The notes under the pieces are model-generated. The model was not told where the DNA came from. It made no database searches and worked only from the letters and a program-made list of their open reading frames with translations. The position numbers were made by a program, and so were the translations under genes. From Hydrurus foetidus (lineage: Eukaryota), in contig UYFQ01000676.1 of NCBI GenBank assembly GCA_900617105.1, forward strand, positions 1-43,514: a DNA stretch of 43,514 nt, given 5' to 3'. Positions 262 to 43,512 of this stretch are shown here, one piece after another; position 1 is the first letter of the stretch, and every line of letters starts with the position of its first letter.

Positions 262-281
262 CTACCCCTTCTTCCTTTTTT
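262..281 (-). other. Polypurine tract of element A
   Basis: Minus strand AAAAAAGGAAGAAGGGGTAG immediately before the 3' LTR TG. Confidence 0.85.
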
Positions 282-457
282 GAAGATCTTTGATATGATA
301 TACAAAAAATGAAAAAAAGAAAAGATATGTAAAACATATATATGAGATATAGATGAAACGATTATGTCAGACTTTTACTGACTAAACTCTCCAAAAAAGA
401 CCCGTAGGTAAAAAAATAGGAGAGAATCCTCATGGATAAAGTTTCAAATATATTAAG

Positions 458-3400
458 TCATCGATGTTGCTTATTGATTAATTTAGTCATGTTATTATGA
501 CGTAAATAATCATGAAGTTTATCAACATCACGAAGACTTGAATAAGGTTCCCAAGTGTTTTTGTCTGAAGGGTAATTTAACCATTTGACTAAAAACTCTA
601 TGTGGGTACGTTGGTGTTTGCCACGATGATCAAGAATGTCTTCAACAAAGTATTCCATGTGATCACGTCGTGCAACATCCAACGGATTTGTGATTGAAGG
701 GTCAAATAGAAAAGGTTTCATTGCAGAAACATGAAACTCTGAAGTTTTCTGAGTGACTAAATCATAAAGTGTGTAACGCGAATTTTCGCCACTAACGACT
801 TTTAATGGGCCTCTCCAATGCGTGTGAAGACGTGAAGGAGGGATCCATCGCGATAGTGCACTAAGACATAAGAGTCTTTTGGATAATCTACATGCTGAAA
901 AACTTGAGACTGACTTTGATGAAGCAAATCTGTGCGAAGAAGTTCTTTAGCAGAAGCTTTAAGAAGACTGTCTTGCGTTTTGAGTAGATTGCTCATACGC
1001 TTTGACAAAGGTTTGTCATCAGTAACATTTCGCTCAGCAGGAGGTAAAAAATACCTCTATCGAGTTTGAGTACATTTCCGAAAAGAAGTTGAGAAGATGA
1101 TATTTTTAAACGATCACTGTGATTAGAATTTAAAATTCGTTGCACAAATGGAAGTGACGTTTTATAATCTTCTAGTGTGACATTATCGAATGTTAATGCA
1201 CGAAGATGTCTATTAACTTCTTTATTCATGCGCTCAACAATAGCATTTTCTTCTTTAGAATATGCTAAAGTAAGACAATGTTGAGTGCCAATAAGAGTTA
1301 GAAACTCTCTAATAACTTCGGAAATGAAGTGTGGCCCATTATCAGAACGGAGTTGGAGAGGTGCGCCGAAACGACCGAAGTGTTGCAAGAGGCATTTAGC
1401 TGTTGAAAGTGCTGTAGCATCTTCTGTATGAAACAGTTCAACCCATCTTGTGAACGTATCGATAATTACGAGTACGTACCCGCCGTCTGGAAACGGTCCT
1501 ATGAAGTCTATGTTAAGGCATTCCATAGGTGTGTAAGTAGAAGTCGAGAAACCATGAGCATGTATTGGTATCTTTAACATACTCATTTTCTGACAACACG
1601 AACAGTGATCTATGAACCACCTGACATGCTGACGCATATATTGCCATACTATTTTTTGTCAATGAGACGCTTTAAAGTGCGCTCAAGGCCAAAATGCCCA
1701 ACTTGTGAATTGTGTACTTTACTGATTGTATTGTACTGATCACGTGTTAGTTTGAATTTTTCAATAGTATTAGCAGACATGATTGCATCAGGAGTATATT
1801 CCTGAGGGAAATCAACCATGTTATTGCGACAGAGTCGAGACATCGAATCAGCTATATCATTGTTAGCACCAGGTATATATTCAATTTTAAATGAATATTC
1901 GGATAAGGCCATAAACCACCGAACAATCATTGGATTTGAATTATCCTTGATGTATAACAAGTTACGATGATCTGTACGCAATGTGAACGTACGATCACGT
2001 AATAGCGATTTTAAATACGTGCACGAATAAAAGATAGCATATGCTTCTTTTTGTATAACAGCCCAACGAAGCTGAGCTTTGTTAAGTGATTTACTGACAA
2101 ATGCTATGGGCGTCTCTTGACCGTCAACTAACTGGAAAAGATAGGCACCTACACCATAGTCCGATGCATCAGTGTGCAAGTAAATCGGATCGGTGTCACT
2201 TAAAAAGTGCATAGTCGTGCATTTTGAAATCTCGGATTTGATCAAATTGAATGCTCTGAGAGCTTCTATTGTCCAAGTTATTTTCTTATACTTATTATAG
2301 TTAAGAAGCAACTGATGTAACGGGTATACAACAGTAGAAGCGTTTCTAACAAAGTCGTGAAAATAATTAACCAATCCTAAAAAACTTTTGAGTTGTTTAG
2401 ATAGTACTGGTTTAGGAAAATCTAAGACAGTCCGTATTTTTTCTTGTGACATTCTAAGTCCATCTGCAGATAGAACTTTGCCAACATAATCTATTTCGGC
2501 ATAGCCTAGATAACACTTATTCGGTTTAAGGAATATTTTGTGTTTTCTAAAACGTTCAAAAACAAGACGAAGTCTAGAAATAAGTTCGTCAATGTCTTTA
2601 CCGAAAACATTGCAATCATCTATGTACATTTCGCATATAGAGTATATCAGACCTGCTAACACAACAGTCGTCATAATCTGTTGGAAATAGGAGGGTGCTT
2701 GTTTTGGCCCAAAGGGTAAACGAGTGAATTGATATACTCCGCAGAATAGTATGAATGCAGTATAAGCACGTGCAGCGAGTGTAAGTGGTGCTTGATGGTA
2801 ACCTTGAGTGAGGTCAAGTACAGCAAACACTTTTGCTTTATGTGCACCTATTCGACGCAACATCTCACCGATGTGTGGAATAGGATGTGATTTATCTTCG
2901 GTACAATTGTTGAGATTCCGAAAATCAATACACATGCGCTTAGTTCCATCAGATTTAGGAACTAGTAAAACTTGGCTATAATAAGCCGCGTTTGATTTTT
3001 CAACAATATTTTGTTTTTCAAGTTTTTAATTTGACTAAGAATGTCAGCTTGATCAACTGTTGATTTAGACCATGGAGGTTGTCTATTTTTAGAGACTCTC
3101 CATTGGTCGTCATTGACATGAAAGTCAAAGGGTGGAATATCAGCAGGAGTGGCCGAAAGTTCACTGCTAAATATATCCTTGAATTCGTGTACTAGTAACC
3201 GAAGTTTATTTTTCTGATCTTCATCACCTGCTAAGTTTATTAGCGAGAGTGGGTCAGTATCAGGAAATTCATCTATCCAAGGTGAAAACGAGTCCTTGAT
3301 CGAGTCGTCGATTTCGTCCTCATCAGGGGGCACAGCCTCAAAAAGTCTTTCAGACTCTTGTATTAGTGAAGCTAGAATAACGTGTGTTTGGGTTACTGCC

Positions 3401-3890
3401 GGTTTCACCTTTTGGGTTAAAGGATCGACCTTTGGGGAGCCATCAGAGGGTTGCAACTTCTCCTTAGGCTGACAGCCACACGTTATATCCACTTGTTCAG
3501 AAGATAAAACTTCCGCTAATGAGGTAGTGCTTGATGAAGCATTGGCAGATATTTGATCGGGGAAACGTGAAAATAAATTCAATTCGCGAATTGTTTTTCG
3601 TCCCACTATTAGATCAAATTTCGAATCGTTTAAAACATAAGCCGTGATTTGAAAAGTATAATAATTATTTAAATCAGGGCAAAAATAAGAAAGAGTTAAG
3701 TCTATAGTGTCAGAAATATCATAACAATGATTATCTAATCCACTACAAACTTTACACAATTTCTTTGAAGAGTTAGATACGAATTGTGTGAAATTATGAT
3801 TAATTATAATGCGGCGATGTATAAAGTTGCCAGCAAAAGAGCCGGTGTCCAGGAGAGTAAAGACTCTATTACTTTTTCCAGCATAACCTC
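458..3890 (-). pseudogene. pol: pol of element A (protease, RT, RNase H, integrase, chromodomain), broken by 1-nt frameshifts
   Basis: PR LLDTGS near 3850; RT LDLTQGYHQ/LPFG/YIDD; RH TDASDYG, TDH; IN HHCC, IDFIGP, SDNG, VERMN; chromodomain EYFVEDILDH..FLVKWLNY..TWEP. Split across ORFs 2962-3759, 1649-2935, 993-1637, 802-1008 and 458-721. Confidence 0.93.
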
Positions 3891-3955
3891 CTGTGAGAGG
3901 GGAGATACGAAGAAAGGAATAAGTTCTGGATCATCGGAAAGAATAGATGATGAAT

Positions 3956-5361
3956 TTAGGTTGCATAGTTGCTCACCTTTGTGTTTCTTCGCAGCGTTTG
4001 TCGAGTCTGCTGTTGAAGTAGCAGGTTTTGACGAAGAGGAAGAAGAAGAGAAGACGATGAAGAAGAGGTCGATGTCTTAGGTAAAGTTGGAATAAACTTA
4101 GCCTTTGAATCGACTTTCAACAACTGCTTATGACCCTCAGAGTTGATATAGGGTGCGTCTGTACTGTTATAGTACGGAGACGTAGTGTAGAAACACGTGG
4201 CGACGAAATGGCCGAGTCTCCCACAACCTGTGCACAGAGGTCTTTCGAATTTGTCAGACTTGTCTGATTGCACAGATTGTTCGCTCTCTCGTGGACGTTT
4301 TTGATTTTGTCCTGAGAGGAACGAGGAGGAGCTTTGATTTGGCGAGAGTGATCACCATACAAAGGAGAGACATCAATGAACCGTAAGGCATCAATTGATT
4401 CTCGTAGCTTAGCAAGCTGCGCAAGCCATACGAATCGAAAGTCTTCGATTGTAATGAGTCTTGGCGTTGTATTGTTAAGACTACGCTGTAACACTGCTCT
4501 CCAATTGATAGGTTCGACAGGCAACTTATCGATTAGAATTTTGGTTGCCTGAAGTTGGAGAGCGGGTGTTGCATCAGGGAATCCATCAACAATATCAGCT
4601 AAAAGCTGATCTGTCTTGTCTTCCACTGATTTATCCTTCAGGTCGAATTGAAGTGCGACCTGAGAGACAGTTTCAATGAAACTCAGCTTGTCAGTTCGAT
4701 TGACAGCTGATGTAGGAACTGTGAGATTGAGTTCTCTACAGAACAATTGATTCGACCAATGTTTCCAATTGTTACAGGAGTCGCGACGATCGGGATCAGT
4801 TGCAAACTTACGCTTGAGAAGCGTTGTAAACGATTGATGGTTGGAAACATGGATTACATCAACTGGTTTAAATGGAGTTCCATTTGAAAGGAGGACCTCC
4901 ATTACCCGTAGTACTTCCTGACGAGAGGGCACGGCGCTCAACTTAGGAGCTCTCTCACCCGTTTGCACATAGTGCTGAGGTGGTGCCATCGAACGAGGAA
5001 TCTCAGCCGAAGCTGGTGTCGCAGACGAATCTGGTGTCGCAGCCGAAGCTGGTATCTCAGCCGAAGCTGGTGTCGCAGTCGAAACTGGTGATAACGTTAG
5101 AGCGGATAAAGCAGATAAAACAGGAGCATCAATAACAGACGAGACCGCAGGCTCCGAATTCCGCTGAGGAATCGGTGCAGACAGGTCGCCGGCGGGGTCC
5201 TGAGCCGCAGGTGGCCCAGGAGACTCGATGCTATCTCCTCCACGATTGTGGTGCTCCTCGTAACGTTGTCGGAAGGCGACGGCGACAGCTCTAGGAGGCT
5301 GTCGTTGTCGGCGAAGGGAATTGATGGTGCTAATCCTCTTGTCCTGGCGTCGGAGAGCCAT
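3956..5361 (-). pseudogene. gag: gag of element A with CCHC knuckle (frameshifted)
   Basis: ORF 4117-5361 continues after a frameshift into ORF 3956-4273, which carries CTGCGRLGHFVATC (CX2CX4HX4C). Confidence 0.88.
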
Positions 5362-5460
5362 TGTCTTCGACTGTCGGAATTACGTGATGGATTAAAAATT
5401 GATGGAGCGGAGAAACGAACTTCTCTCGACGAAAAAACTTTGGTATCGACCAAATATCGA

Positions 5461-5725
5461 TGTTGTGGTCTTGGGCGGGGCCTAGGACGTTGGAGCTAAA
5501 AGTGGTGGTCGGTTGATGCAAGCGGTGGGCAAGGGAAGGAAGGATAGGTGGAGTAAACTTGTGTTAGTATTTTACAGTTGAGTATCTACAAGTGATGTGT
5601 ACGCTAAAGTGCATTCACGTCATATGTGGAACTAAGACCTAAAAGTGGAATCTGGGCGTAATATACCTATTGTACCTAGTTAACCTAGACACATTGTATC
5701 CCCTTAGGAATGCAATAAGGCTACA
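5461..5725 (-). repeat. 5' LTR of element A (265 bp, TG...CA)
   Basis: Repeat of 1-261; minus-strand termini TGTAG...CAACA. The inner boundary is inferred from the CA end because the partner LTR is cut by the window edge. Confidence 0.92.
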
Positions 5726-5735
5726 GTAAAAGCGT

Positions 5736-5852
5736 AGCATGTATGCCGAGCGGTCGTGGCAGCGGTGTACCTATTTTACTGCCACATCGGTCGCGGGTTC
5801 GAACCAGCTCCGGTGGTCCGACGCCCAATATTATTCTCAGTAATTTTTTTTT
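5736..5852 (+). pseudogene. Degenerate tRNA-derived sequence / possible SINE head with Pol III A and B boxes
   Basis: A-box-like TGCCGAGCGG (5744-5753), perfect B-box GGTTCGAACC (5796-5805) and a T-run at about 5844-5852. No clean cloverleaf. Confidence 0.5.
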
Positions 5853-6217
5853 CAGTTAATTAATTCCTGTACTTCTCTCTCACCACAAATTTTCAGTAAT
5901 TAATTCGTATTTCAAATCATTCTCACGAAAACCATTCTCACGACATATTACGTTTACGGTACCCTCGTACAGGATAGGGGGAGACCATGAAGAACTCACC
6001 TCCTGTCGTTACGTGAGTCATGAAAATGCGTTGGATATCAGGTCTCTCGTAAGGAGACTGACGGATGCATTTTAAATGCACTGTGCTTCACCTTCATATC
6101 TTCTACGACTGTCATATTCGAGATTGCATTAGAGATTGTCACTTCACCGACCGAGTCAACGTGGGATTTTCAATTCAACAGATCTCTTCGTGATCAGATT
6201 AACGTCGAGTCAAGATC

Positions 6218-7840
6218 ATGAAAGTTGGTCAAATGATTGCATCAGCAATACTGCTCTCAGCATTCTCGGATTCTTTGAAGAGTTCCAGATTTTACAGACC
6301 TGTCTCCAAGACGGCTATGCATAATCGTAGACTTACGCCCCACGACCACATATATGAGAAATTGATGGATGTAGCTCCAAATAACTTCGCAGTTAACAAA
6401 GCAAAGAACGTATTGCTCAGCTGCTTGATAACTGTATTTCTATTTGGTTCGGCTGTTCCATCAACGATTGCATCTACACTGGGATCGAAAGTAGACATTG
6501 GTGAAACAGTATCATGTGAGAACATCAAACTAGATCACCTCGTTAAGGTGGGTGCTGGTGGTGGTGGAACTGTATTTTCAGCCGTGCGACAGGGTCTCCA
6601 TCAGACAATTGCTGATAACGAGAATGCTGCTAAGGTGATTGGTTCATGACGATGTAGATATTTAATGACGATAGAGTGAATATTCCTTACATGCTTCTTT
6701 TACACCCCACCTTTGCTTCGCAGGTTGTTGTAAAAGTAAGCTGGGCAACAAGTGCAAACTCAGTACATCATGAATGTGAAGTGCTCAGGTATTTAGAGAA
6801 ATATAACGTCAAAGGCGTAGAAAGATGCATCGCCAGTGGAGTTTACGTGCAGCCAGACGAAGGACATCTTCTTTCTGTAACTGCTGCACTGCCACTGGAT
6901 AGCGAGTCCGCATTCTTTCCATCTGAAGCAGCATTTAAATCAGCTTCAACGGACTTAGACACTTCTAAGAAACAATCCTCAGCTGTTATTGATCAACCTC
7001 GGAAGAGTGTAACGTACTTAGCATCTCTGTATGAGCTAGATGAGGAGCAAGAAAATAAGAAGAAAGAAAGTAGTAGATCAACTCTAATATCAGAGAAGAC
7101 TCTCCAAGAAGGAGAAAGAGCGATGATTGTTCTCGATCCGTATTTCAAGGCAACTAGGCCCGCTAAGTCAACACTGCTAGATATCTCGGAATATTCTGTC
7201 AAAGTCAAAGCGGTACATAATTTGATCGGAACTATGATGGACATGCTGTGGGCGGGTAGTGCGGGATCTGATCTGCAACCGCTCCTAGATGTGGACACAG
7301 GTGAGAACAGAACTGAATAGGAAAGAGGAGAAATGAACAAAACTGAATTGCATTGAATTGTAAAGAAGAGAACAAGACAGAATTGAAGTGTATTGTACTG
7401 AATAGAACAGAATTGGACAGAATTGAATTGAACAGAACAGGACGACAACAGCTAGAAAGCAAAGCTGGCAAGAAAAAGCTAAATAATATTGCATCAAACA
7501 TCATCTGGTTATATGCACTCCACGACAATTCCTCATCACTGGAAATCTCAGTAAATTCAACATCTGCACCTTTTCTTGTTCCGCAGGTGACAGTCTGTTG
7601 ATCGATATGACAGAAGCGGAAATATTCAGCAACAGGACGAAATTGAATTTTGAAGATCAGCAGATAGCGGGATCGTTCATAGGAGAGATGTTCTCTCTTA
7701 TAGCAGCCGATAGAGGAAATTCAGATGGTCTTATGGCTGAGGCTAGAAGAACTGTCAAGGATAAGACAGGATATATGCACGCACTGGGCGATGATATGCC
7801 TGCGAGCATACTTTCCATATTAGACACTTATGTAGAGTGA
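6218..7840 (+). CDS. Host protein-kinase-like protein, 3 exons (6218-6634, 6724-7300, 7587-7840; 415 aa), probable plastid presequence
   Basis: GT-AG introns 6635-6723 and 7301-7586 join three ORFs in frame. Motifs: Gly loop VGAGGGGTVF, VVVKV, helix-C HECEVL, degenerate GSDLQP, LLIDMTEA. Hydrophobic N-terminus. Confidence 0.78.
7305..7440 (+). repeat. Degenerate pentanucleotide repeat (GAATT/GAACA/GAATA) in intron 2
   Basis: Visible GAAnn periodicity; explains several spurious ORFs here. Confidence 0.7.
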
Positions 7841-8813
7841 TTTAATCATTCAACAGTCGGAGAACTGTTGTGCAGTAATCCTTTCTCCGTCTCTTTCATC
7901 GCCATGGCGACTGGACTGATGTGTGGTATTCAACAAAAATTTCGTCATGTGTTATCACATCACACCTACACTGGCCAATTCATCAGCTCCATTACTCCCC
8001 TTTTGACTGTCCACAGTGTAATAAGCTGCATGATATTCATCTGACCTCGTGACATGTCGTGATACAATGTGATTCATATCGCTAATACATGAAACTAGTG
8101 TGATGAGTGCATGGAGAAGAACAACGATAGGAGTTGGAACAGGGGAACTCATTAGTATCGACTAGACAGCGTATTGCCACAACCATCGGTGCACTATATC
8201 GACACGTCTCGTACCACCTCTTATAGATCCCAATTCAATGTTTCTTCCTCGTTCTCACTGCTATCCGTCACTTCTCACGGACCAGTTAGAATCTGTCTGG
8301 GCCTGTACATCGTAACAAACTGTATTTTTGACCTCGTTTCTGTGTCCTACGGGCGTGTGCCTCTCAAAGGCGAGAGCTCTCTGACCTCAGAAGCGATATT
8401 GGCAACGAGACACATATCCATTATCTCCAATCTCTCTGTTTCGCTTCGCACATATGATGAAGATTCAGCAGTCTCTCTACGGAACGATTTCCACACTCAG
8501 CGTTTCGTTGAACAGCAAGGGCAGCGACTAGGACTTTCCGAGTTTTCACTCTTAAGACTTTTTCATATAATCACAGATTTAGGGCGGGATTAATGTGTGT
8601 TACTCAAAGTAGATGACTGAGTGCAAACTTGTGTGATGCATCTATGGCATGGAAGGAAAACACTCGAAAACTGTGCGACTAGTCATAGCAGCGATACGTG
8701 ATTTTGATTCAATGCAGAGAGATGGTAGACTGATGTGAGTGCATTTGAAGTCTCTTCAGCCATGACACTGCTACTGGCCTATAATCGACTGTCAGAACAA
8801 TGTGTGCTAGGTA

Positions 8814-9609
8814 CTAGAACTGACTGTTCATGTAGTGTCTCTTGGCCGCTCTGTCTGCCTCCCGCATCTGATCTTCAATCGAGTTCTCCCTCTTCAACTT
8901 GATCTTCTTTCCTATAGTGTTTGAAATACTGAATGAGCGGAATCTGCAGGAGAACTGTTTGCTATCAAAATATGTACAGAATTTGGTACTGCTAATTTGG
9001 ATCGTCTAATTAACCGGACCTGTTATCACGCTGCGTCTGGTGTCTTCATCGTCAGAACTAGAAGATCCTTCTTGCGAATCACCACCTGATGAGGACTCTT
9101 CCTTTTTGTATTTCTTCTCTTTCTTTGCCTTTTTCTGTTTCTTTTCTCTCTTCTCTTTCTTGTCTTTCTCACTCCGATGCTTCACATGTTTCTTGTCGGG
9201 TCTATCATCTTTCTTTCTGTCGCTTTTTCGCGATTTCTCTACGGGACTTGATTTTCTCTTCTTATCATCATTCTCTCCTCTATTCATCTTCTCCTCATGT
9301 GCTGAGCTTGATGAGGAGCAACCTGCCGTTTCCCGGATCCCTTTTTCGTCAGAAGAGAAAAAGCAGACAACTTCAGGATGAGAACACGCGTTAAATTATC
9401 CGCTACAGATAAATTTCCTCTGTACCTTTTCTAGAATCATGTCGATCTGATGGTGACAATGACCGCTTTCTCGCGCTTTGATTTCCTTCTGTTACGACGT
9501 TGATTCAGTGACAAGACACGGAGGAGCAAGGATTTTGTGTACTAACGGGTATACCCGTTAGCAAAAGCTCTGTTAGATCCAGTGCGATGCTAGTTAATGG
9601 GTCCGACAT
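8814..9609 (-). CDS. Host small Lys/Arg-rich protein, multi-exon, probably nuclear
   Basis: ORF 9006-9287 is spliced (intron 9019-8912, GT..AG) to a last exon, giving RRSVITG|KKIKLKRENSIEDQMREADRAAKRHYMNSQF*. Upstream exons (donor at 9425, ATG at 9609) restore frame but are less certain. Confidence 0.62.
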
Positions 9610-11437
9610 TTAGAGTTGTCACCGACCCACCTTCCATGGAAGCCTAATCTCAGTCAAACTTCTGACTGAAACCGGATGGAGAATTTTTTTGTTAAATTCA
9701 AATCAGAACAAATGAGGCAGTGCCACCGGTGAAGTATGAGGATGCCTCTTGTAGAGGACAATGTATGACCTATCAAACTACGGAAGGATTCTGCTTATCA
9801 AATCACAATCACCTGTGATTTGGGAGAGTTGAGAGTTGAAAAAATGGTTCGATCGTCGTTCTTCAATTTACCATTTCGCGATTAGAGTGGTTGCGATTTT
9901 CGTTATTTGACCTTTTTTTTCAAATATTTAAAAAAAAAACCCGAAAAAATATTCAAATATTCTTGAATCCCAGCGGTGGCGGAATCTTGAACCCAACCGT
10001 TATCCTGAACCCACGATCTTTCAAAACTGAACGTTAGCAACCTATTATTTTCGAAATATTCATTACTTCTTGCAACATTTTCAAAAGCAGATCACAATTC
10101 GAGATTAGCAGTTGCCTAGATCACTTCGTTAGCTATCGAGCGGTATCTTTCATTTCCTCTTTTGCGTTCTTCTACTTCTGGTTAGAGTGTCCTTCGCCAA
10201 CGAGATTGACGGCAACTTTTACGATTCAAAAATGTTGAAACTAACGAGATATCAGGACTTATCTGATTGGGTACTGCTGGCATCAGACCAGAAAGAGCTT
10301 TGTGAGAACATCTTGGGAAGTGGGATGAGTGCTTATGCATGGTCGCAGCGACATAATAGGAATTATCAAAGCATCAAAAGATACATGAGAAAGTACAGAC
10401 TGTGGAAATCTACTGGAATGGACACCTTTCATGATTCTTACGGGGGACGTCCACCAATGATCGATGACGCTGGAATAATCAATATTAGAAACGATTTGAG
10501 AGCTAATCTGAACTCAAGCACTTGTCAGAACTCAATGACGAATCAGTTTCAAATTCGAGTTGAGAAAGAGATTGCTGAGACGAAAAAGAGGAGAGGGTTT
10601 GCGGCGACTGAGTGCACTGTACCCAAGAAGTTTGTCAGGGTATTCAAAGCAACGAACAGCTTTACTGACGTCGTGTGTCAATTTAAGACTCATGCTCGTA
10701 TATTTGCAGAAAGTGACCCACGCAATCTATATTCCTTCGCTATGATGAATCAGGCTTTTCTTTCTGGAATCGATGCATGCTGCGTATTCAACTGGGATGC
10801 AACACAGTACTGTGTGAATGCAGAGGGCTTTGCAACAATCGTGAAGTGTAAAAGCGAAGGACGCGATGTAGTTCCAACATCTTTGAGCGCAGGAGGACTT
10901 GGATTTGCTATCAAGTATTATCACTTTCACAATGCTAACGGTGACGTCGCTCCAGCTGTTTTCATTGTTGCCGACGATACAATGTCTGAGGATGATCTAT
11001 TTTGGGAAGAGATCACTGGGCTTAGTCATACACAATTGGTAGATGCTAGTGGATATCTGGTCTTCACCAAAACGAGGAACTGCAATGCAGCATTCTACCG
11101 GTGGTATGCATTTCACGTTGTGGCACCCTTCGTACTAAAATGCCGGAATATTCACAAAAGCGTGAATGCAGACGGAACGCCAATGAGAGCATTCGTAGTA
11201 TGCGACGGTGAACCCTCGCAAATCCAAGTATTTCAGGAGAGTGGTCTCTTGCAACTGATGAGCGAGACCTTGATCGACTTTGGAAAATCACCAGCGTCCT
11301 GTAGCGCCATAACTCAAGCATCTGACGACAGTGACTTCTTCAATGGATCAAAGAAGAAATTGCAGAGAATTCGCGAGACAGATTACATTGATAAAGGGCT
11401 TAATGCAAGATTGAAGGAAGTCGTGGGTAATCGTGTT

Positions 11438-11839
11438 TGTTATAGCTTCCACTATTTCATAGTTTCCACTATATTGCATTCTCACACGTACGTTACATGT
11501 ATGTACGTACATAGTACACATTGCTTGCAGCCACAGGTTTTTCGGTACCAGCTTTTCGGTACCAGTTTTTGGTTTCTCGAATACTTCAACTTGCAACTCT
11601 CGTAGTCAGCTTCTTCGATACACCTCTCACATCTTTAAATCTTTAAACAAAACACCAAACCCAAACCGGCTTCTTTTAGCCAAACATCCTGTCCAGCGAC
11701 TCTCTTGTTGCTGAACGATCTGTGGCCGTTAGCCGCTCATCCTAGTTTGCAGTTCTCGCAAACTGATCAACAGCCCTTGCAGTTGATCCAAGAAACCCGT
11801 CCTCTCGTTTTAGCTTCTGTAAGCTACGTGGACAGCATA
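11438..11839 (+). repeat. 5' LTR of element B (TG...TA)
   Basis: Identical to 18921-19322 by eye. Confidence 0.95.
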
Positions 11840-12047
11840 AAAGTACTTTTCTCGTTTACACAAGAACGATCAGACAAATCTCCAGTTCAGAATAAGACTC
11901 TTCAAGCCAGACGACGGTCGTAGTTTGCGAATCTGGCCAAACAAGAGCTGATACTGTTCGGGTGAGATTCAACTCCTTCAGTGACATTTCACGAAGCAAA
12001 AAATATTTGTACAAAAAATATCCTTCTCTTCTTCGAAGAAGAAATCC

Positions 12048-13775
12048 ATGTCGAAAGAAGTTCCTACTGTTCCGAAGAACTCGCCGAAGTTGGATCCTGG
12101 CAAGTCTACTACTAAAGATGAAACTCCAATCATTCGAAAGAATAACGACGATGCCGAATTCCGCGCCATGGTTACGCAATTCTGTCAGCAGAGTGTCAGA
12201 AATCAAGAATCCAACAGAGAAGACATCACAGAGTTGCGTGCAGCCATCGCTTCGTTATCAATGAAACCTGGCGATGAAAGTCCATACTCTCTTGGTGATA
12301 TTGAGACACCTGTTGCGGATCGTTCGAAAAGCGACCGACGTTCCACCATTTTCTTTGGGCAATCATTGTCTCCAGATGATAAGCAAACCTCCTCCCAACA
12401 ACCACGCATCCAGATATTGCAAAATGATATCGTCTACGATAAGGAATTGAAAGTTTCCTCACTAGAAGGACTTCAATACCTTGCAAAACAGATGCAGCTA
12501 CTAGCTTCAAAATATCCTGGTCGCGACATCAAGATGGCTCACATGGTAGCTTACAACTTAAGGCCTCATATCGTAGCCAACTGGAACTCCTTCCGTTTCC
12601 GACAGTCACAAGTGGATGGTCGTGAGTATGAAGAAGTAATGGTTGAAGACTGGCTTTCCTTCACAAATCCATCTGTTCAACAGATTCTAATCGAAGCTGC
12701 GAGACCACGCACAAAGGAGTTGTATTCGCGGGAACTCATTCTATTCCTTGGCAAAGGAATTCCACAAAGCCCCGACATCAACACCGAGAATTTCTCGAAA
12801 ATATTCTACGGCCCGCTCATGAGATCTCTCAATGATTTGCTCAGTCTGTACAACCTCCTATCTGAGGAGACATCTAAGCTCAGCAACAACGCTGCCAAAA
12901 TGCCCGTTGGTACCTATGGTACAAAAGATAGCCCTGGCCATATCTCACTCTGGATTATATCACTCGGAAGTCAAAAAGATTCAATCCTACAATGGCTAGG
13001 CAAAGATGATTTAAGCAAGCATAAAACGCTTGAGTCGGCTGTCAAGTTCGTCCGTTTCAAACTCATGGAAGGACGTTCCAACAGTGAAGCCCGGCAAGAT
13101 TTTGATTCCCAATTAACGCCTATGCGTTGGAATGAATTGCGTTCCACTCAAGGAGAGTCTCACAGCAGACATCAAATACCAGCCTTAAATCCATCTCATC
13201 AACGTGTTGCTGAGATCTCGAAGACCCGTCATCATTTTCGTACCAACTTTTCAGCGCTTGCCTCCTCAACCGACACAAACATGGATCACCAAGACAATCA
13301 TGATGATACTGGTTATAACAAAATTGACGAAGACTATGATTATGACGACATAGAAGACTCTGACTACTCTGTCTACAACAGCCATCAGAATTCTACTGAT
13401 TTAATTAATGAACGCAATCCATCCTCCCCAGACGAACCTTCATTAGCTGTGCTCACTACCACCAATCCCTCACGTGCTGCTATTGCGGCTACTTTTCGTG
13501 GTTATTGCTGTGAGCTGTTTGTATTCGGAAAATGCTCCCAGTCAAAGAATTGCACGAACGATCATTCAACGGCAGCTCAGGAGCGTTGTCTGGCTTCCTT
13601 TAATCTGCTCAGCAGACGAGAGATTGCTGCTCATGGTCAGCTACCACCATGGTCCCAAACCTCAAATACACAACCTCGTCCTGATTACCGCAAAGGGCTC
13701 ACGACACATCAGAGTTCCAATAAATTCGAACCCTTACATGGGAAAACCTTCTACCCTCCAATGAAATCAAATTAG
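12048..13775 (+). CDS. gag: gag of element B (575 aa) with CCCH-type zinc finger
   Basis: Long ORF between the 5' LTR and pol; contains CCELFVFGKCSQSKNCTNDH. Confidence 0.85.
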   Translation: MSKEVPTVPKNSPKLDPGKSTTKDETPIIRKNNDDAEFRAMVTQFCQQSVRNQESNREDITELRAAIASLSMKPGDESPYSLGDIETPVADRSKSDRRSTIFFGQSLSPDDKQTSSQQPRIQILQNDIVYDKELKVSSLEGLQYLAKQMQLLASKYPGRDIKMAHMVAYNLRPHIVANWNSFRFRQSQVDGREYEEVMVEDWLSFTNPSVQQILIEAARPRTKELYSRELILFLGKGIPQSPDINTENFSKIFYGPLMRSLNDLLSLYNLLSEETSKLSNNAAKMPVGTYGTKDSPGHISLWIISLGSQKDSILQWLGKDDLSKHKTLESAVKFVRFKLMEGRSNSEARQDFDSQLTPMRWNELRSTQGESHSRHQIPALNPSHQRVAEISKTRHHFRTNFSALASSTDTNMDHQDNHDDTGYNKIDEDYDYDDIEDSDYSVYNSHQNSTDLINERNPSSPDEPSLAVLTTTNPSRAAIAATFRGYCCELFVFGKCSQSKNCTNDHSTAAQERCLASFNLLSRREIAAHGQLPPWSQTSNTQPRPDYRKGLTTHQSSNKFEPLHGKTFYPPMKSN

Positions 13776-13842
13776 GGAATTGCGAGGCCCTCATTGACTT
13801 CCCTACAGTCAGAGGATCACCTCGCCCCTTCTTCCATAGTCT

Positions 13843-16800
13843 TTGATCCTGAAGCTATTCTCTCAAGCACTCCTCTCACAACTGGCTTCTAGTACGTCTG
13901 TACCCGCACAAGCTCTTTGTCAGCCTTTCATTCGCGCTGGTTCAGTGCAATCTAAGGACGGACTCAACCCATTCCATTTCGCTCGTGGTCTATTGGACAC
14001 TGGCGCACAAGGCAGTAACTTTGTTTCCGGTACACTAGTTCTCAGCCTACCTAAATCGCATACGCTTGCTACTCGACCAACGGATCGCATTGTCCGCCTT
14101 GGTGATGCACGTCACATTGCAGTTCAATCTGAAATCCAACTCCTGGTCTGTTTGACTGATTCCTCTGGCAACGATCACGCTCACATACTATGGTATAGTG
14201 TTCTTGAGGATCTCAGTCATGATCTTATCATTGGTCTCGTCGACCTTGTCGGACCTTTCTACGATGTATTCGCTGATGCGATAGCTTCTTCTCGAAAATC
14301 TGCAATCGGAGCTATAGGAACTAATCTTCACGCTTTAACCGCCACAATCCGTGAATCCCTACCTTGTGCTCATCTTGGCAACACAATTCGCACAGCGCAT
14401 AACCTTAGTTCCCACAGTCGATCGTACGATCTCCGAAAGCGTGCCATCTGTACTAGCTCCAATACTGATATCTACGCTGTTGCTCTGCATGACGGTTCCA
14501 GCACTGATGTCCTTTCACACCCGCGGCATGGACTAGTGTATGCTGACAACCGCGTCGAACTACAGCACAATGCACTCTCATCATTACTGACTCAACCGTC
14601 ATCAGGAGATATCCTACCACCTTGGTCGCAACCAATTGATCAAATTGCACTCGAAGAATCCGAGACGCCTGATCCAACAAGTTTCCCTGACGATATACTC
14701 ATGCTTCTCACTGTCTCAAAAGATGAGGCTCGTCATGAATACAATAAAGATTTAGAGACTCACGTCATGCCAGAAATGAGTGCCGCTCATCCCAACATCT
14801 ATCGCCTTCTCACGTCTGACCTGGCATATGATGTCTTTGTTCCTCAAACCTGGACAGGTATACATATGCCTCCATACCATCTGACCACAAAACCTGGTCT
14901 CCCTGAGTTCCTGAAAGCTCACACCCGCCCAATTCGCGATATGCTCTACCAACATGCCAAAGCAGAATTTGATCGGATGAAAACGTACTTCTACGTGAAA
15001 TCAAATTCACCAATCGCTTGCCCGTTAGTAGTTGCACCTAAAGCCACAGCACCATTCATCCGCTTGTGTGGTGACTACAGGCCTATCAACCCCTTCATAT
15101 CCATTCCACAGGAACCCATTCCACATGTACAGCAATCCTTAGCAAAAGCAGCCGGATGGAAAGTCTTTGTAGATCTTGACATGACAAACTCATTTCATCA
15201 AATCCCACTTGACGAAGCAAGTTCCAACCTTCTGTCTGTATCTACACCATGGGGTCTGTACCGTCCCCTCTTCCTTCCTGAAGGTGTAGGACCAGCATCA
15301 GGAATCCTCCAATCAATCGTCCGCCGAGTATTTATCGACTATGAAGACTGGATCATTGTCATCTTCGACAATTTTCTTATCCTCGCCTCTGACTACGCTG
15401 ATGCAGCCAAGAAACTTGACCTTGCTCTCCGACGTTGCCGCGAGCATGGACTAGTGCTCAAAATGAAGAAGTCTTGGATTGGTTCCACAAATGTAACATT
15501 TTTCGGCTATGACGTACATCCAGGAACCTGGAGCCTCTCTCAGTCTCGGAAAGATGCCATCAGTGCTCTTGTCTTTCCGACAACGCAAAAGCAAATGCAA
15601 AGCTTTCTAGGTGCTGCAAACTTTTTCCACACTCACATCCCCAACTATGCCTCATGGGCATCCGATTTATACGAGTGTACTGCCGTGTCTTTTGACTGGA
15701 AGTCTCTGACATGGCCAAAAGACTATCGCAACCTATTCGAAACATTCAAGACAGCAATCCAAGCTTCAGTCATACTACACTTCCCAGACTACAACCTTCC
15801 CTGGATCATCAGATCCGACTCCTCCGACAACGCTGTGGGTGCTGTCCTCTTTCAAGAATTCACTGATTCATCCGGTACCATCATCCATCAGCCGATCACA
15901 TTCGCATCTCATAAATATTCCGGCGCCGCAGTAAACTGGGATACCTACAAAAAAGAAGCATACGCAATTTACTATGCCGTGTGTCAATTCGGGTATTACT
16001 TAACCGGCAAAACCTTTGTTGTAGAAACTGACCATCGCAATTTAGTATGGATGGAGACAAGCCTTGTTCCTATCATCATACGCTGGCGTGTCCTCCTTCA
16101 AAGCTACAGCTTTCAGATCAAACATATCCCTGGTAAAGAAAATGGTGTTGCCGACTGGATATCCCGTATGCATCCTCAATCGACACCATCTTCAACCCTA
16201 TCGTCATCGGAGAATACACTCAGTATTCAAGAAATGTTCGCATCTGTTCACGGTCATCGATCACTCCATCACGGAGCCAAACGAACTTACCTGACTCTTT
16301 GTCAACGTTATCCTGGACATGGCATCGCACTCCGCACCATCCAAGACCTTGTAGCTGAGTGTCCGATTTGCCAAAAGGATCGAATCCCTTTTGCCACTGT
16401 ACCTTCTCCTTCACTTACTGAAACAATCCTTCACCACGTTCGCGCCGTCGGTATGGATCATGTTACAGTTACACCTCCTGACGAAGATGGTTATATCGGA
16501 TTGTTACTACTTGTAGAACATGACACAAAATTCCCCCGTGCTTATCCAGTACGCGACTACACTGCTCCTACTGTCGCAACTATTCTGTTCCAACATTACT
16601 GTACCTTCGGTGCTTATGATGCACTATACTCTGATCCTGGCAGTGCATTCACTGCAACAGTCGTCCAACAGCTCAACTCTTGGATTGGTATTCCCCATCG
16701 TATATCAGTTATTGGACGTCACGAATCTAACGGAACAGAACATGTAAATGGTATCTTCATGGGTCACTTACGCCGTCTAGTTCATGACGAACGACTCACT

Positions 16801-17568
16801 CATAAGTGGGCATCTGACACTATCTTACCTCTTATCAATCATGCACTAGCCACCACACCAAATTCCGAACTTGGCGGTCTCGCTCCAACAGAGCTGAAGT
16901 TCGGTACAATGGATCATGCCCGCTTTCAACTACCACCGCCGCTTCCACCAGGTCATTCCTACGGTGAATACGTTAATCAACTAGACATAAATTTGTCAAT
17001 AGTCCGTGCCATCACAACACAATATCAACACGAATTGCGACAAAAACGTCAAGCATCCACAACAAATCAAAACATATATCAAAAAGGCGATCTCATATTG
17101 TGGAATCCAAAAGAACATGACAAGGCGTTTCGGTCATCAAAACTTGCACCAAAACTATTAGGCCCATACACTGTAATCACACAAGACGGAAATAATATTA
17201 CCTGCCTGCACACTCAGCTCAATACAGAACACGTCTTCCACACCGACCGCATTTCCCCCTACATCGGCACAATGAGATCAGCACAAAAGATTGGACTACT
17301 TGATCGAGAAGAATACATCGTCAAATCAATTGTCGCTCATCGTGGAAAATGGACTCACCTGAAATCAATTGAGCTCCTCGTCCACTGGCACGGCTACACC
17401 TCCGATTCCGATTCCTGGGAGCCTTGGACTTCGCTCCGACTTGTCAAGGCCCTCCACGAGTACCTACAAAAGATAGGGCATACAAATAAAATCCCACTCC
17501 CCTACCGACACGATTACCTCCCTCAACAAGGTATCGATACTACTCCAAAAGCCCACAAGGGTGCTTGA
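13843..17568 (+). CDS. pol: pol of element B: PR-RT-RH-IN-chromodomain (1241 aa)
   Basis: LLDTGA; DLDMTNSFHQI; LPEG; IFDN; SDSSDNAVG; TDHRNL; HHCC; GMDH/SDPG/TEH; LLGPY; chromodomain EYIVKSIVAH..VHWHGY..SWEP. Confidence 0.96.
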   Translation: MILKLFSQALLSQLASSTSVPAQALCQPFIRAGSVQSKDGLNPFHFARGLLDTGAQGSNFVSGTLVLSLPKSHTLATRPTDRIVRLGDARHIAVQSEIQLLVCLTDSSGNDHAHILWYSVLEDLSHDLIIGLVDLVGPFYDVFADAIASSRKSAIGAIGTNLHALTATIRESLPCAHLGNTIRTAHNLSSHSRSYDLRKRAICTSSNTDIYAVALHDGSSTDVLSHPRHGLVYADNRVELQHNALSSLLTQPSSGDILPPWSQPIDQIALEESETPDPTSFPDDILMLLTVSKDEARHEYNKDLETHVMPEMSAAHPNIYRLLTSDLAYDVFVPQTWTGIHMPPYHLTTKPGLPEFLKAHTRPIRDMLYQHAKAEFDRMKTYFYVKSNSPIACPLVVAPKATAPFIRLCGDYRPINPFISIPQEPIPHVQQSLAKAAGWKVFVDLDMTNSFHQIPLDEASSNLLSVSTPWGLYRPLFLPEGVGPASGILQSIVRRVFIDYEDWIIVIFDNFLILASDYADAAKKLDLALRRCREHGLVLKMKKSWIGSTNVTFFGYDVHPGTWSLSQSRKDAISALVFPTTQKQMQSFLGAANFFHTHIPNYASWASDLYECTAVSFDWKSLTWPKDYRNLFETFKTAIQASVILHFPDYNLPWIIRSDSSDNAVGAVLFQEFTDSSGTIIHQPITFASHKYSGAAVNWDTYKKEAYAIYYAVCQFGYYLTGKTFVVETDHRNLVWMETSLVPIIIRWRVLLQSYSFQIKHIPGKENGVADWISRMHPQSTPSSTLSSSENTLSIQEMFASVHGHRSLHHGAKRTYLTLCQRYPGHGIALRTIQDLVAECPICQKDRIPFATVPSPSLTETILHHVRAVGMDHVTVTPPDEDGYIGLLLLVEHDTKFPRAYPVRDYTAPTVATILFQHYCTFGAYDALYSDPGSAFTATVVQQLNSWIGIPHRISVIGRHESNGTEHVNGIFMGHLRRLVHDERLTHKWASDTILPLINHALATTPNSELGGLAPTELKFGTMDHARFQLPPPLPPGHSYGEYVNQLDINLSIVRAITTQYQHELRQKRQASTTNQNIYQKGDLILWNPKEHDKAFRSSKLAPKLLGPYTVITQDGNNITCLHTQLNTEHVFHTDRISPYIGTMRSAQKIGLLDREEYIVKSIVAHRGKWTHLKSIELLVHWHGYTSDSDSWEPWTSLRLVKALHEYLQKIGHTNKIPLPYRHDYLPQQGIDTTPKAHKGA

Positions 17569-17622
17569 ATATGGAAAGCCCAACACCTGAGGCGAACCCC
17601 TAATAGTAAGTCCTTGTTAGTT

Positions 17623-18294
17623 TTACACAACAACATTCTCATCAATTAAATCAAACGCAAAGCAATGTGATATACAATAAAATCGCTGCGCTACATTCAA
17701 CACACTGAATAATTTAACGCCTCTGCAACCATTATCATACATATTGATCACACCATCACAAACAATTATACTCATAGCATGGTTTGGAAGTAGCATATTC
17801 TGCTTCTCCCATACCTTAGCCTTCAACGTGTCACCCTGTGCTCTCTTGATTTGCTTCAATTTACTCGTATGAGTAGGCCCTGTGCTCCTTGAAGCTCCAA
17901 AAATAATGTATCTTCCATTCACAGTCAATTTCTTCTTCAACTGCTTTGGTCCGAATCTATTATTGAATTTGATCTCACGAAACTTATATGTCCAGTTTTC
18001 ACCCCTAACACTTGCCACCTCGCAAACATGACGTAAGAAATCGCGAACTTCATCTCTACCACAACCATCTGGCAACACCGTAATGTTGTTGGCTGTCATG
18101 AATACATCCCTTGGATCCTTGGCTCCATTAACCTACACCATTTACATATTATACATATCAGCAAATAACTCAAAATTATTCAATTCAACGATTTTTCGAC
18201 TTACCGTCACCATCGCCTGCTGCTTCGCGTTCAGTGCTGACATGATCGCAAATAATACGCACATATTCTCGTCTAAACTCCACTTGAACTCCAT
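17623..18294 (-). pseudogene. Antisense cargo gene in element B, putative papain-fold cysteine peptidase-like (~223 aa, two in-frame stops)
   Basis: ORFs 18142-18570 and 17623-18099 share one frame, separated by TAA and TAG. Motifs ENMCVLFAIMSAL and NHAMSII..NMYDNG. Confidence 0.5.
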
Positions 18295-18585
18295 ATTGTA
18301 CACACTCCACCGCAAGAATACGAAATTCGCCAAAAATTGTACGTAGTATCCCCAATAAATACGAAATTTTTCAAAAATCGTACGCAGTATCCACACTGAA
18401 TACAAAAAATTTCTCCCGACACGTTTCACCGATCTTCTCACACGTTTCACCGATCGGCAATTATTGATTTTTTCTCCAAAACGGCAGAGACAAATAAAAA
18501 ATCGAAGTTCGAATAAATTGTGATTGATTACAGATTCTGAACCGCAATTAAAAACTACATCTGAATCCATCTCTCAAAACTCTCA

Positions 18586-18633
18586 CAACTTCAACTTCAA
18601 CTTCAACTTCAACTTCAACTTCAACTTCAACTT
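18586..18633 (+). repeat. (CAACTT)8 microsatellite
   Basis: Eight perfect copies. Confidence 0.95.
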
Positions 18634-18920
18634 GAAAACTAAAACATGATTCTAGGCAAATGAAGGTCCCCTGTTCATATTAAACTGGTTTCGGTGAAGC
18701 TATCGAATCTTAATTTCACACTTTGAAGGTCGTGAGTTCGATTCTCACATATAACTACTGCTAAAATGAAACCGCCAGTAATATTTTTCTTACCTCATAT
18801 CTAATTATGCTTCTACAGCGATACAACAATGTTTGCGAACTCACTGAGATGTAACAACATATTTTGTATTTATTCATTTTTTAACTCCCATAGTCTCACA
18901 TTTAACCGCGAAAGGGGTGG

Positions 18921-19322
18921 TGTTATAGCTTCCACTATTTCATAGTTTCCACTATATTGCATTCTCACACGTACGTTACATGTATGTACGTACATAGTAC
19001 ACATTGCTTGCAGCCACAGGTTTTTCGGTACCAGCTTTTCGGTACCAGTTTTTGGTTTCTCGAATACTTCAACTTGCAACTCTCGTAGTCAGCTTCTTCG
19101 ATACACCTCTCACATCTTTAAATCTTTAAACAAAACACCAAACCCAAACCGGCTTCTTTTAGCCAAACATCCTGTCCAGCGACTCTCTTGTTGCTGAACG
19201 ATCTGTGGCCGTTAGCCGCTCATCCTAGTTTGCAGTTCTCGCAAACTGATCAACAGCCCTTGCAGTTGATCCAAGAAACCCGTCCTCTCGTTTTAGCTTC
19301 TGTAAGCTACGTGGACAGCATA
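18921..19322 (+). repeat. 3' LTR of element B
   Basis: Identical to 11438-11839; preceded by the PPT. Confidence 0.95.
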
Positions 19323-37140: not shown

Positions 37141-37178
37141 TCAGGCAAAAAGAGTAACAGAGAGGCAATCTTTAGTAG

Positions 37179-38210
37179 TCAGAAGATGGTCGACATTGTC
37201 CACATACAATGGCATGACAGGCGGCATCTCGAACGATGAGGGTGGGGTGAGCCATATTTGGTCACTTTCATCTGTGCTCGCCTTGCATTGTTGAGCACCT
37301 TGATAAAGCGGACGAGGCAGGACCTCCATGTCTCCTCATCCTTGAGGTTCTCTACCAGCTTGAGCTGCAGGTAGTCAGTCTGGATCTGGCTTCCTGGGGG
37401 GAAGCGTTTCTCCACTAACTTGACTAAGTCCCGCTTTTGCTCCAACGTCATCTGGGGGTGTTCCATCGCAAACGTGCGAGCCACGGAGGTGTACTCACGC
37501 ATTGTCTGGACTTCCAGATTGGGATCGTCGTAACAGTACTGGAAGGCCACCTTCTCGAATGCTTGGGTCAGGGTCTCCCCTGTCTCCGGTCGCATCCCGA
37601 AGTACCTGACGACGAGTTCTGCAATCGTCAGGATGGGTAGCTCTTTCCAGTTCGCAAGCTGTGCTGGTGAGAGGTGCTTGATTGTGTCGTCGATCATGAT
37701 CCTGATGTCCAAGGCGTCCACCGCTTCCTCTCTCATGACTTGGTTCAGCTCGATCCCGTCTCCCTGACTGTTGGCCTGCTGAAGGAACTCCTTGGCTGCT
37801 TGAGGCGTAATCTGAGAATCCTCGATTATGAAGAGCGGCTTCTGCAACTGAAGAGCTCTGTTGAGTTTCTTCTTGTTGAACTGCTCTGATCCTCCAGGCA
37901 TCTGAGTGCTGCCGTACGGGAGCATGCAATTGTCAGATATGAACGATGCGTTCATATCCATGAGATCATCATCTATGATTCTCTTCGGAAAAGTTTTTCC
38001 GAACTGTCGTATCCATCGTCTCCATCTCGCGGTGTCGGCTGCACCGATTGTGATCTCATTGGTGGACGATGAGCCACGGTTGACGTCGACGAAGACGACG
38101 ATGAAGACGAAGACGGGCCGGAAACAGGCGTCGGATTCATCGCTCGGATCGCGTCCTAAAACTTTCTTAAAAATCCTTTTAAAACCTCTAAGATCTTTCA
38201 AATCCTGCAA
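37179..38210 (-). pseudogene. gag: gag of element D (nucleocapsid apparently deleted)
   Basis: Similar to gag of E (AAKEFLQQ vs AAREFYEH; LVVRYF vs LVLRYF); no CCHC knuckle. Confidence 0.75.
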
Positions 38211-43006: not shown

Positions 43007-43194
43007 CGTTAAATGACTTATGTCTTGACAATTTTAAGTAGCGAGAGTCGCCAAAAAATTGCAAGGGCTTCGCCTCGTGCCGTTTGGATGAAAATCAAAC
43101 AGACGATTAGGCGAAGCAAAATAAGTCAAGTAAGTTCTGGGCGGATGAATGAATCAATCCGCACAAAATGAGCCGGGATTGGGAGACTTGCTCG

Positions 43195-43512
43195 ATCAAG
43201 CAAGCTTGAAGCGAGAGATGGGCAGAAGTTAACTGAGTTAACTCTGCACAATGATATGGGATTGCCGAGATGAAACTCGAGCAACCACAAGATAGTCAAG
43301 TATCGGGAGATAAATCTCAATCCGAGTGACTAAGTCTACGGCGTGGAAGCCAAAGCTATCCACGGACGTCAATCAAGCAAGCTTGAAGCGAGAGATGGGC
43401 AGAAGTTAACTGAGTTAACTCTGCACAATGATATGGGATTGCCGAGATGAAACTCGAGCAACCACAAGATAGTCAAGTATCGGGAGATAAATCTCAATCC
43501 GAGTGACTAAGT
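43195..43512. repeat. Direct repeat of 141 bp (43195-43335 and 43372-43512; period 177) upstream of gag E
   Basis: Two identical copies by eye; may continue beyond the window. Confidence 0.9.

Follow-up and report, generated by a model that had tools for sequence, protein, structure and literature searches.

In a Ty3/gypsy retrotransposon, an 86-nt intron at the Gag/protease border is spliced from part of the transcripts and probably yields a Gag-only message

Retroelements require far more Gag than Pol, and frameshifting and readthrough are the textbook solutions. How is this balance reached in a retrotransposon whose intact relatives carry gag and pol in a single frame? The question is raised by element A, one of several retrotransposons with long terminal repeats (LTRs) in contig UYFQ01000676.1 of Hydrurus foetidus, of which the whole stretch of 43,514 nucleotides (nt) was analyzed (the window). 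Element A lies on the minus strand and carries, between the Gag zinc knuckle and the Asp-Thr-Gly (DTG) of the protease, an 86-nt segment (3891 to 3976, minus strand) with the form of a spliceosomal intron. The segment starts at the donor AAAG/GTGAGC (the slash marks the intron border; the first intron G is at 3976, and GTGAGC occupies 3976 to 3971) and runs to the acceptor CTCTCACAG, in longer form TTTCTTCGTATCTCCCCTCTCACAG, with its CAG at 3893 to 3891 and the last intron G at 3891. It thus reads GTGAGC ... TCTCCCCTCTCACAG, and 14 of the 17 nt at positions -20 to -4 are pyrimidines. Its length is of the form 3n+2, it interrupts the Gag frame in phase 1, and its unspliced reading encodes 28 residues (EQLCNLN...LIPFFVSPLSQ). 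The original prediction had drawn donor, acceptor, length, and position from the letters alone, and all are present on the minus strand.

Is the segment spliced? Four data sets sharing one organism label were used, namely, two DNA-like contig sets (X1 and X2) and the raw reads of two oligo-dT RNA runs from one sample (X21 and X22). Reads were mapped on 265 to 18920 and then, with finer settings, on 3500 to 4399; about 6% of each RNA run was read. None of the contigs of a metatranscriptome set (X17) mapped to 3500 to 4399, an outcome that is uninformative. The junction reads that had been named as a check on the prediction were found, two in X21 and four in X22 (two start positions in each run), with a shorter side of 41 nt. 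Their joint, reported as 3889 to 3976 (skips 86, ends CT..AC, cut +1), corresponds exactly to 3891 to 3976. All six reads are sense, with the first mate on the plus strand, which is the orientation of a spliced minus-strand host gene in the window (8351 to 9631). The joint was observed in 0 of 2100 mapped X1 contigs, and none was listed for X1 or X2 over 265 to 18920.

Unspliced polyadenylated RNA also was present. X22 depth across the intron, in 30-nt bins from the acceptor side to the donor side, was 9.6, 2.1, 0.4, 0.5, and 4.0, the first value lying just downstream of the acceptor and the last upstream of the donor. Unspliced continuation into the intron was seen in at least five X22 reads, four of them from a more diverged copy. 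Six spliced reads from an oligo-dT library therefore stand beside at least five unspliced ones, so that spliced reads make up about half of the few that cover the acceptor. Host introns in the same reads measured 108, 85, 142, and 89 nt, so a length of 86 nt is ordinary for this organism. Among thousands of contigs of family A, the repeat family of this element, neither the GT nor the AG of the intron had a variant at 1% or more. In its dinucleotides and pyrimidine tract, its RNA-only junction, and its host-like size, the segment is a U2-type GT-AG intron. We conclude that 3891 to 3976 is genuinely a spliceosomal intron and that part of the polyadenylated transcripts lose it. The finding is more than chance, because the RNA matches exactly a junction predicted from the sequence and because the same geometry recurs in 25 of the 26 elements described below.

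What does removal of the intron do to the reading frame? The frame that contains ...AAKKHKG (4076 to 3804) reaches the donor in phase 1 and is connected to the knuckle frame only via a break in a Ser run. It had been supposed that the donor is in phase 1 once this frameshift is corrected, and the correction exists: a G inserted behind 4049 is present in other copies (110,834 of 172,985 summed word depth in X2). As assembled, removal of the 86 nt feeds the AAKKHKG frame into the protease frame, with 0 stops in the 133 codons read, in agreement with the prediction that splicing of this copy would fuse Gag to Pol. The unspliced Gag frame of the same copy terminates at 3804 to 3806 after an out-of-frame tail, and the copy as assembled contains no single open gag-pol frame in its unspliced RNA. 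The outcome is decided by a run of five A residues just downstream of the acceptor (A5; 3873 to 3877, minus strand), which has six in other family copies (A6); this one base determines which of the two, the intron frame or the frame after splicing, enters the protease. By frame arithmetic, a spliced A6 transcript would meet a TAA (3869 to 3871) nine codons before the catalytic Asp, which is encoded in the GAC ACC GGC of the DTG (3841 to 3849, minus strand). In the A5 copy, this TAA is out of frame.

Family A is clearly highly repeated. The word depth summed over X1 and X2 was about 3e5 to 8e5 on element A and about 126 on the single-copy flank, figures that, as the tool warns, give no copy number. 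Every frame break of the window copy coincides with a variant that is 1 nt longer in other copies. These variants lie at 839, 1045, 1651/1652, 3022, 3872, 4049, and 4297 and, except for those at 839 and 4049, fall at A or T runs of at least five. A6 (a T inserted behind 3872) accounted for 77,948 of 218,968 summed depth in X1 (9 contigs) and 79,316 of 206,166 in X2 (11 contigs); 141,020 of the 218,968 in X1, about two thirds, lacked the extra base. Among the RNA reads, 6 of 10 in X22 had A6, as against 0 of 2 in X21. The original prediction had suspected that A5 is really A6. A6 is indeed real in other copies, but A5 also is real DNA and was not shown to be an assembly error.

Comparison with other copies of family A, which had been proposed as a further check, identified both the Ser run correction and the A6 correction in real family members. 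The protein P0041, which is 94% identical to the family A Gag over the aligned part, has one open frame across the Gag/protease region, running through the Gag core, knuckle, Ser run, KKHKG, intron-coded peptide, and LLDTGSF. P0079 and P0041 are uninterrupted at the 4297 and 4049 sites. P0001, P0004, and P0006 (83 to 88% identical) begin at ML directly after the acceptor and continue into the protease; these three and P0041 have ML..S.RV.TLLDT in one frame. The window copy is a broken member of the family, one base short at at least seven places, including the A run after the acceptor. Both length states are common in short-read contigs at the variant sites, and the one-base losses look like slippage fixed in an amplified, probably nonautonomous subfamily rather than assembly error alone. 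The copy also is one base shorter at 303, 311, and 409 in the LTR, and its shortened sites as a whole are mostly A/T runs of 5 to 7. One X1 DNA contig skips 179 nt (3768 to 3948, ends AG..GA) and represents a deletion variant without the acceptor and the protease start.

A programmed -1/+1 frameshift at a slippery site between gag and pol was considered and rejected, because intact relatives, both close and distant, have a single frame. The coincidence of the frame changes in this copy with 1-nt variants, mostly at homopolymers, also counts against such a site.

Is the arrangement found beyond family A? Twenty-six elements were read as DNA, comprising A, C, D, and E of the window, 10 metagenome loci, and 12 loci from bins of metagenome-assembled genomes (MAGs), with the relatives' loci retrieved by a profile of the protease region. 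They fall into about 17 to 18 groups at less than 60% protease identity. In 25 of them, the donor codon is NGT, stands in phase 1 relative to the protease frame, and is followed by a donor-like hexamer (GTAAGT, GTGAGT, GTAATA, GTACGT, and GTATGA among relatives; GTTTGT and GTCAGT are weaker), and an in-frame NAG acceptor lies 80 to 206 nt after the donor, behind a hydrophobic stretch, at a length of 3n+2. The remaining element, L002, is ambiguous, being too short and broken to judge. The original prediction had appealed to the support of one diverged element; the geometry is now read in about 17 lineages. Twelve contigs in bacterial MAGs (L011 to L022; Saccharibacteria, Polaromonas, Bacteroidota, and others) code for gypsy polyproteins of eukaryotic type and most likely are eukaryote contigs that were mis-binned.

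The homologous introns of elements C, D, and E, all on the minus strand, are sequence-based candidates, RNA having been mapped within 265 to 18920. That of element C (31223 to 31359; 137 nt, AAAA/GTAAGT ... CCACAG, phase 1) lies within a 1182-codon open frame. The candidate of element D (37138 to 37265) comprises 128 nt (AAA/GTGACC ... CTGACAG), and that of element E (39732 to 39937) comprises 206 nt (GATG/GTACGT ... GTAACAG, phase 1) with a TAA directly before its CAG. The shifted frame behind the element C candidate has 68 open codons, rich in Arg, Asp, and Ser like the preceding Gag tail, and a stop 10 codons before the Asp.

Codon choice at the splice sites is strongly skewed. Donor codons in the 22 tabulated elements were GGT (12, Gly), AGT (7, Ser), and TGT (3, Cys), with GT alone in common; acceptor codons were CAG (19) and AAG (3, the group of L005, L006, and L010), so that Gln at the acceptor was encoded by CAG in 19 of 19 cases. 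In the same frames, the background was 0.30 of Gly for GGT, 0.17 of Ser for AGT, and 0.32 of Gln for CAG. Taking one element per lineage (17 lineages), the synonymous choice has a P of about 4e-10 for donors and about 5e-9 for acceptors. The donor value is optimistic, because donors were placed by eye beside a basic stretch; the acceptor Gln is a fixed, alignable column. Intron lengths of close relatives differ by multiples of three (119 nt in L007 and 110 nt in L008; 116 nt in L005 and 125 nt in L006), as fits a stretch that is both translated and spliced.

The two frames differ in what follows. In 19 of 25 elements, the intron frame is free of stops and leads on into the protease. Among long protein hits, 20 of 35 are single open reading frames (ORFs) of 1490 to 1790 residues, and 31 of 35 contain the protease motif plus upstream sequence and are open across the Gag/protease region (three lack the motif and one starts at it). 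The segment is present in all 26 DNA elements and in all 31 long proteins covering the region. In 21 of the 22 tabulated elements, the shifted frame that splicing would produce meets a stop ahead of the catalytic Asp, after 5 to 68 codons; the sole exception is the window copy as assembled. The chance of such a stop in all 14 lineages counted is about 3e-3. In 12 of the 22, the shifted-frame stop is exactly 7 codons before the Asp, usually with an AAT codon and then a codon starting with AA or GA. These sequences suggest that both frames are read over a stretch immediately ahead of the protease core.

Where does the intron fall in the protein? The retropepsin fold of element A is based on a model of the relative P0009, built with 24 aligned sequences at a mean predicted local distance difference test (pLDDT) score of 66. 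Residues 177 to 223 are disordered (pLDDT below 50) and cover the linker, the donor position, and the initial two thirds of what the intron encodes; the hydrophobic stretch is modeled as a strand (226 to 233) in a block with a pLDDT of about 70 to 74. Foldseek matched the protease region to Ddi1 RVP and to the RSV, XMRV, FIV, and HIV proteases (E of 7e-5 to 1e-2). Because strand 226 to 233 leads into the retropepsin domain, the acceptor is predicted to lie just inside the protease, as in BARE1 of barley. The earlier observation that the acceptor CAG reads as Gln after a hydrophobic strand thus recurs across the clade and agrees with the model. The intron is dual-purpose in this model, with its 3' third predicted to encode the first beta-strand of the protease fold.

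Which role does this suggest? We consider it probable that, in intact members, removal of the intron from part of the transcripts halts translation right ahead of the protease, so that the spliced message likely encodes Gag alone and the unspliced RNA is the Gag-Pol mRNA. In this scheme, the unspliced RNA of intact members would presumably also serve as the genome. Removal of the intron would shift the frame and end translation just before the protease, and the spliced RNA would be translated into Gag. A Gag-only template would be added in this way, Gag would be raised over Pol, and the spliced RNA presumably would be excluded from particles. By the logic of BARE1 and EVD, the spliced RNA would be the main Gag template, and the element A intron most likely works, by analogy, as a copia-type Gag-only switch inside a Ty3/gypsy element.

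BARE1, a Ty1/copia element of barley, has a facultative 104-nt intron at the protease start with a stop after the junction, and half of its poly(A) RNA is spliced (PMC3735527). It resembles the clade described here in combining a single unspliced gag-pol frame with a small GT..AG intron at the Gag/protease border, the removal of which causes a frameshift and an early stop, and it resembles element A in the spliced share of its poly(A) RNA. Its nonspliced or defective sister subfamily, BARE2, can be likened to the subfamily situation here. Unlike BARE1, element A has the order protease (PR), reverse transcriptase (RT), RNase H, and integrase (IN) plus a chromodomain, which is that of Ty3/gypsy; membership in Ty1/copia is excluded because the integrase follows the RT. 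The host also differs, being a non-plant-like eukaryote rather than barley. A further difference is that about 17 lineages keep the intron described here, in phase 1 in every case, and we infer the production of Gag from the spliced RNA.

EVD and other Arabidopsis Ty1/Copia elements produce "shGAG" RNAs, in which a splicing-coupled frameshift brings in a Gag stop (PMC5580714). Splice sites conserved around the protease are a shared feature; those introns differ in that they are long and excise the protease and in that splicing is coupled to premature polyadenylation (PMC5580714). That study detected no such conserved splicing in Arabidopsis Ty3/Gypsy elements and terms the strategy unique to Ty1/Copia (PMC5580714). 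Drosophila copia makes a 2-kb spliced subgenomic RNA dedicated to Gag (cited in PMC3735527); its intron removes about 2.9 kb of pol, whereas element A loses 86 nt and its RNA remains nearly full length. What BARE1 and EVD have in common, a border intron with a length that is not a multiple of three, is found here at 86 nt and in 25 of 26 elements at 80 to 206 nt. A 2025 review names only EVD, BARE1, and Ogre (PMC12786077), and no description of Gag-only splicing in Ty3/gypsy was found in the literature searched. Splicing-induced frameshifting is known from plant Ty1/copia and Drosophila copia; our results suggest it also for a Ty3/gypsy clade, by way of an intron that is short, protein-coding, and phase-fixed. 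The same splicing solution would then extend across a broad Ty3/gypsy clade whose members have single ORFs and come from environmental eukaryotes; if this is true, host splicing would have been recruited to balance retroelement proteins either convergently or very long ago. For finding further cases, the signature is a 3n+2 length together with an NGT codon that follows a basic stretch and a CAG that follows the first protease strand. Annotators should note that an alternative intron may lie concealed in a "frameshifted" gypsy copy or in a single Gag-Pol ORF.

Several observations weigh against a Gag-only switch. Read numbers are tiny, RNA depth on element A being very low (10 reads in X22 and 4 in X21 on 900 nt), and, because the reads come as overlapping pairs, the six junction reads amount to some three fragments, all from one sample sequenced in two runs. 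Splicing is partial, as the X22 reads entering the intron show. The only junction reads with a readable A run state (X21, 2 of 2) carry A5; since the two X21 reads at the A run are the junction reads, the spliced molecules of X21 carry A5. Splicing of A5 copies gives a Gag-Pol fusion and no stop, and a spliced A6 read was not seen. The intron frame contains a stop in D, E, L005, L006, L010, and perhaps L002, so the unspliced RNA of these elements would give no Pol unless readthrough occurs. Finally, no protein of the spliced form was present among 89 database hits (43 + 35 + 11), of which sequences were inspected for 14 of 43, 35 of 35 (by script), and 10 of 11.

Some of these points would be expected if splicing had the opposite outcome in the A5 subfamily, with unspliced RNA giving Gag and a minority of spliced RNA giving Gag-Pol, as in Ogre. 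We regard this as unlikely. It is favored by the open fusion frame of the copy as assembled, by the share of A5 in the DNA depth, and by the A5 state of both X21 junction reads; the X22 counts would fit four spliced A5 and six unspliced A6 reads, an assignment that the tables do not phase. Element D points in the same direction: its 354-codon Gag ORF (38243 to 37179) meets GTGACC in phase 0, its unspliced Gag frame stops 28 codons into the candidate intron, and, as assembled, removal of the 128 nt brings Gag into frame with a Pol ORF of 1004 codons. Ogre provides a precedent in that it is Ty3/gypsy and sets its ratio by partial splicing (PMC6317226). The Ogre pattern, in which unspliced RNA stops and splicing joins an ORF to pol, fits this copy and element D as assembled but not most of the clade, where the unspliced frame is already open; moreover, the Ogre intron lies after the protease, is noncoding, contains stops, and is required for Pol (PMC6317226). 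Given the open unspliced frames of most relatives and their stops once spliced, A5 looks derived. The fusion product would lack the intron-coded first protease strand of the P0009 model. The window copy has at least six further pol frame breaks, so the A5 subfamily looks nonautonomous. Element D is without a zinc knuckle and may be a deletion derivative, and the odds of an in-frame fusion by chance are 1 in 3. A two-way switch, in which splicing leads to a stop in most of the clade and was flipped to fusion by one-base shifts in the A5 subfamily and element D, strikes us as similarly doubtful. If it were true, Gag:Pol would be set by splicing either way and toggled through homopolymer slippage.

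We give little credence to the idea that the joint reflects splicing noise, that is, occasional use of a GT..AG pair with products degraded without a role and the ratio set by readthrough, A run slippage, or protein turnover. The very low expression would accord with noise, and the intron-frame stops in D, E, and the L005/L006/L010 group suggest that readthrough exists in the clade; TGA-CTA and stop-CAG-CCN, which occur there, we take to resemble leaky-stop contexts. Noise does not account for GT and AG being maintained through synonymous codon choice in about 17 lineages, for indels in threes within the intron, for the retention of a shifted-frame stop before the Asp, or for the splicing of about half of the acceptor reads. 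Least credible of all is that there is no splicing and that the joint stems from transcribed DNA copies without the 86 nt or from template switching in the library: 3 nt fit either side of the joint, and absence from X1 contigs is no proof, since contigs lose rare variants, but the joint was not met in either DNA set, it falls exactly on the GT..AG predicted beforehand from sequence, and the segment is missing from 0 of 26 DNA elements and 0 of 31 long proteins covering the region. A Gag-only message thus remains the preferred reading of the intron.

The element that carries the intron lies on the minus strand and reaches from the window start to 5728 or beyond. Its LTR parts, 1 to 264 and 5465 to 5728, form a direct repeat of 99% identity; 5465 to 5728 is at least part of the 5' LTR, and its partner is truncated by the window start. 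Downstream of the LTR are a 420-codon Gag core ORF (4117 to 5379; relatives P0079 to P0088) and the Gag C-terminal frame with a CCHC zinc knuckle (3956 to 4351), which is broken upstream at about 4297 and in the Ser run at about 4049. The knuckle, CTGCGRLGHFVATC, lies in this frame (4351 to 3956) upstream of the intron. A protease-and-linker ORF of 322 codons with LLDTGSF (2962 to 3930) is followed by RT/RNase H (1649 to 3025), integrase (993 to 1658), and a chromodomain (458 to 946), which together occupy 458 to 3025 (Pfam RVT_1, RT_RNaseH, rve, and Chromo). These three regions are each in a separate frame, and the coding part as a whole is spread over at least seven frames. The domain order, PR, RT/RNase H, integrase, and chromodomain, is the Ty3/gypsy order by Pfam. 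With its LTRs, CCHC Gag, retropepsin, RT-RNase H, integrase, and C-terminal chromodomain, element A is a Ty3/gypsy chromovirus-like LTR retrotransposon.

In three elements, the codon immediately ahead of the acceptor CAG, read in the protease frame, is a stop (TGA at 37141 to 37143 in D, TAA at 39735 to 39737 in E, and TGA at 137 to 139 in L002), and the frame downstream of it is long and open in D and E. Over three separate elements, these stops are too regular for random decay; they may be a programmed Gag stop with readthrough or part of a design in which splicing fuses the frames. An in-frame TGA with CTA behind it lies three codons past the donor in all three loci of a subclade whose protease reads LLDSG (580 to 582 in L005, 2063 to 2065 in L006, and 525 to 527 in L010). 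P0068, of the same group, has Leu in place of this TGA, and the acceptor of the group is AAG. The TGA could be a leaky stop.

Element B (11438 to 19220, plus strand) belongs to a different chromodomain gypsy clade and has 300-nt LTRs that are 100% identical. Its gag (596 codons) and pol (1242 codons) frames are offset by +1 and lie 64 nt apart. By eye, no GT..AG pair of fitting length joining gag and pol was found in element B, and no RNA reads fell on it.

The host gene at 8351 to 9631 (minus strand) is well expressed and encodes a Lys/Glu/Ser-rich protein. Its introns measure 108 and 85 nt, and the donors 9630 and 9541 are alternatives joined to one acceptor side (23 + 16 and 8 + 13 reads). 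Pfam applied to 10 ORFs outside the elements yielded no useful clue to the host; the Atlas assignment was Eukaryota only, and Oomycota were most frequent in its top cluster. At the window end (43192 to 43512), two copies of a 144-nt unit, 99% identical, lie 177 nt apart.

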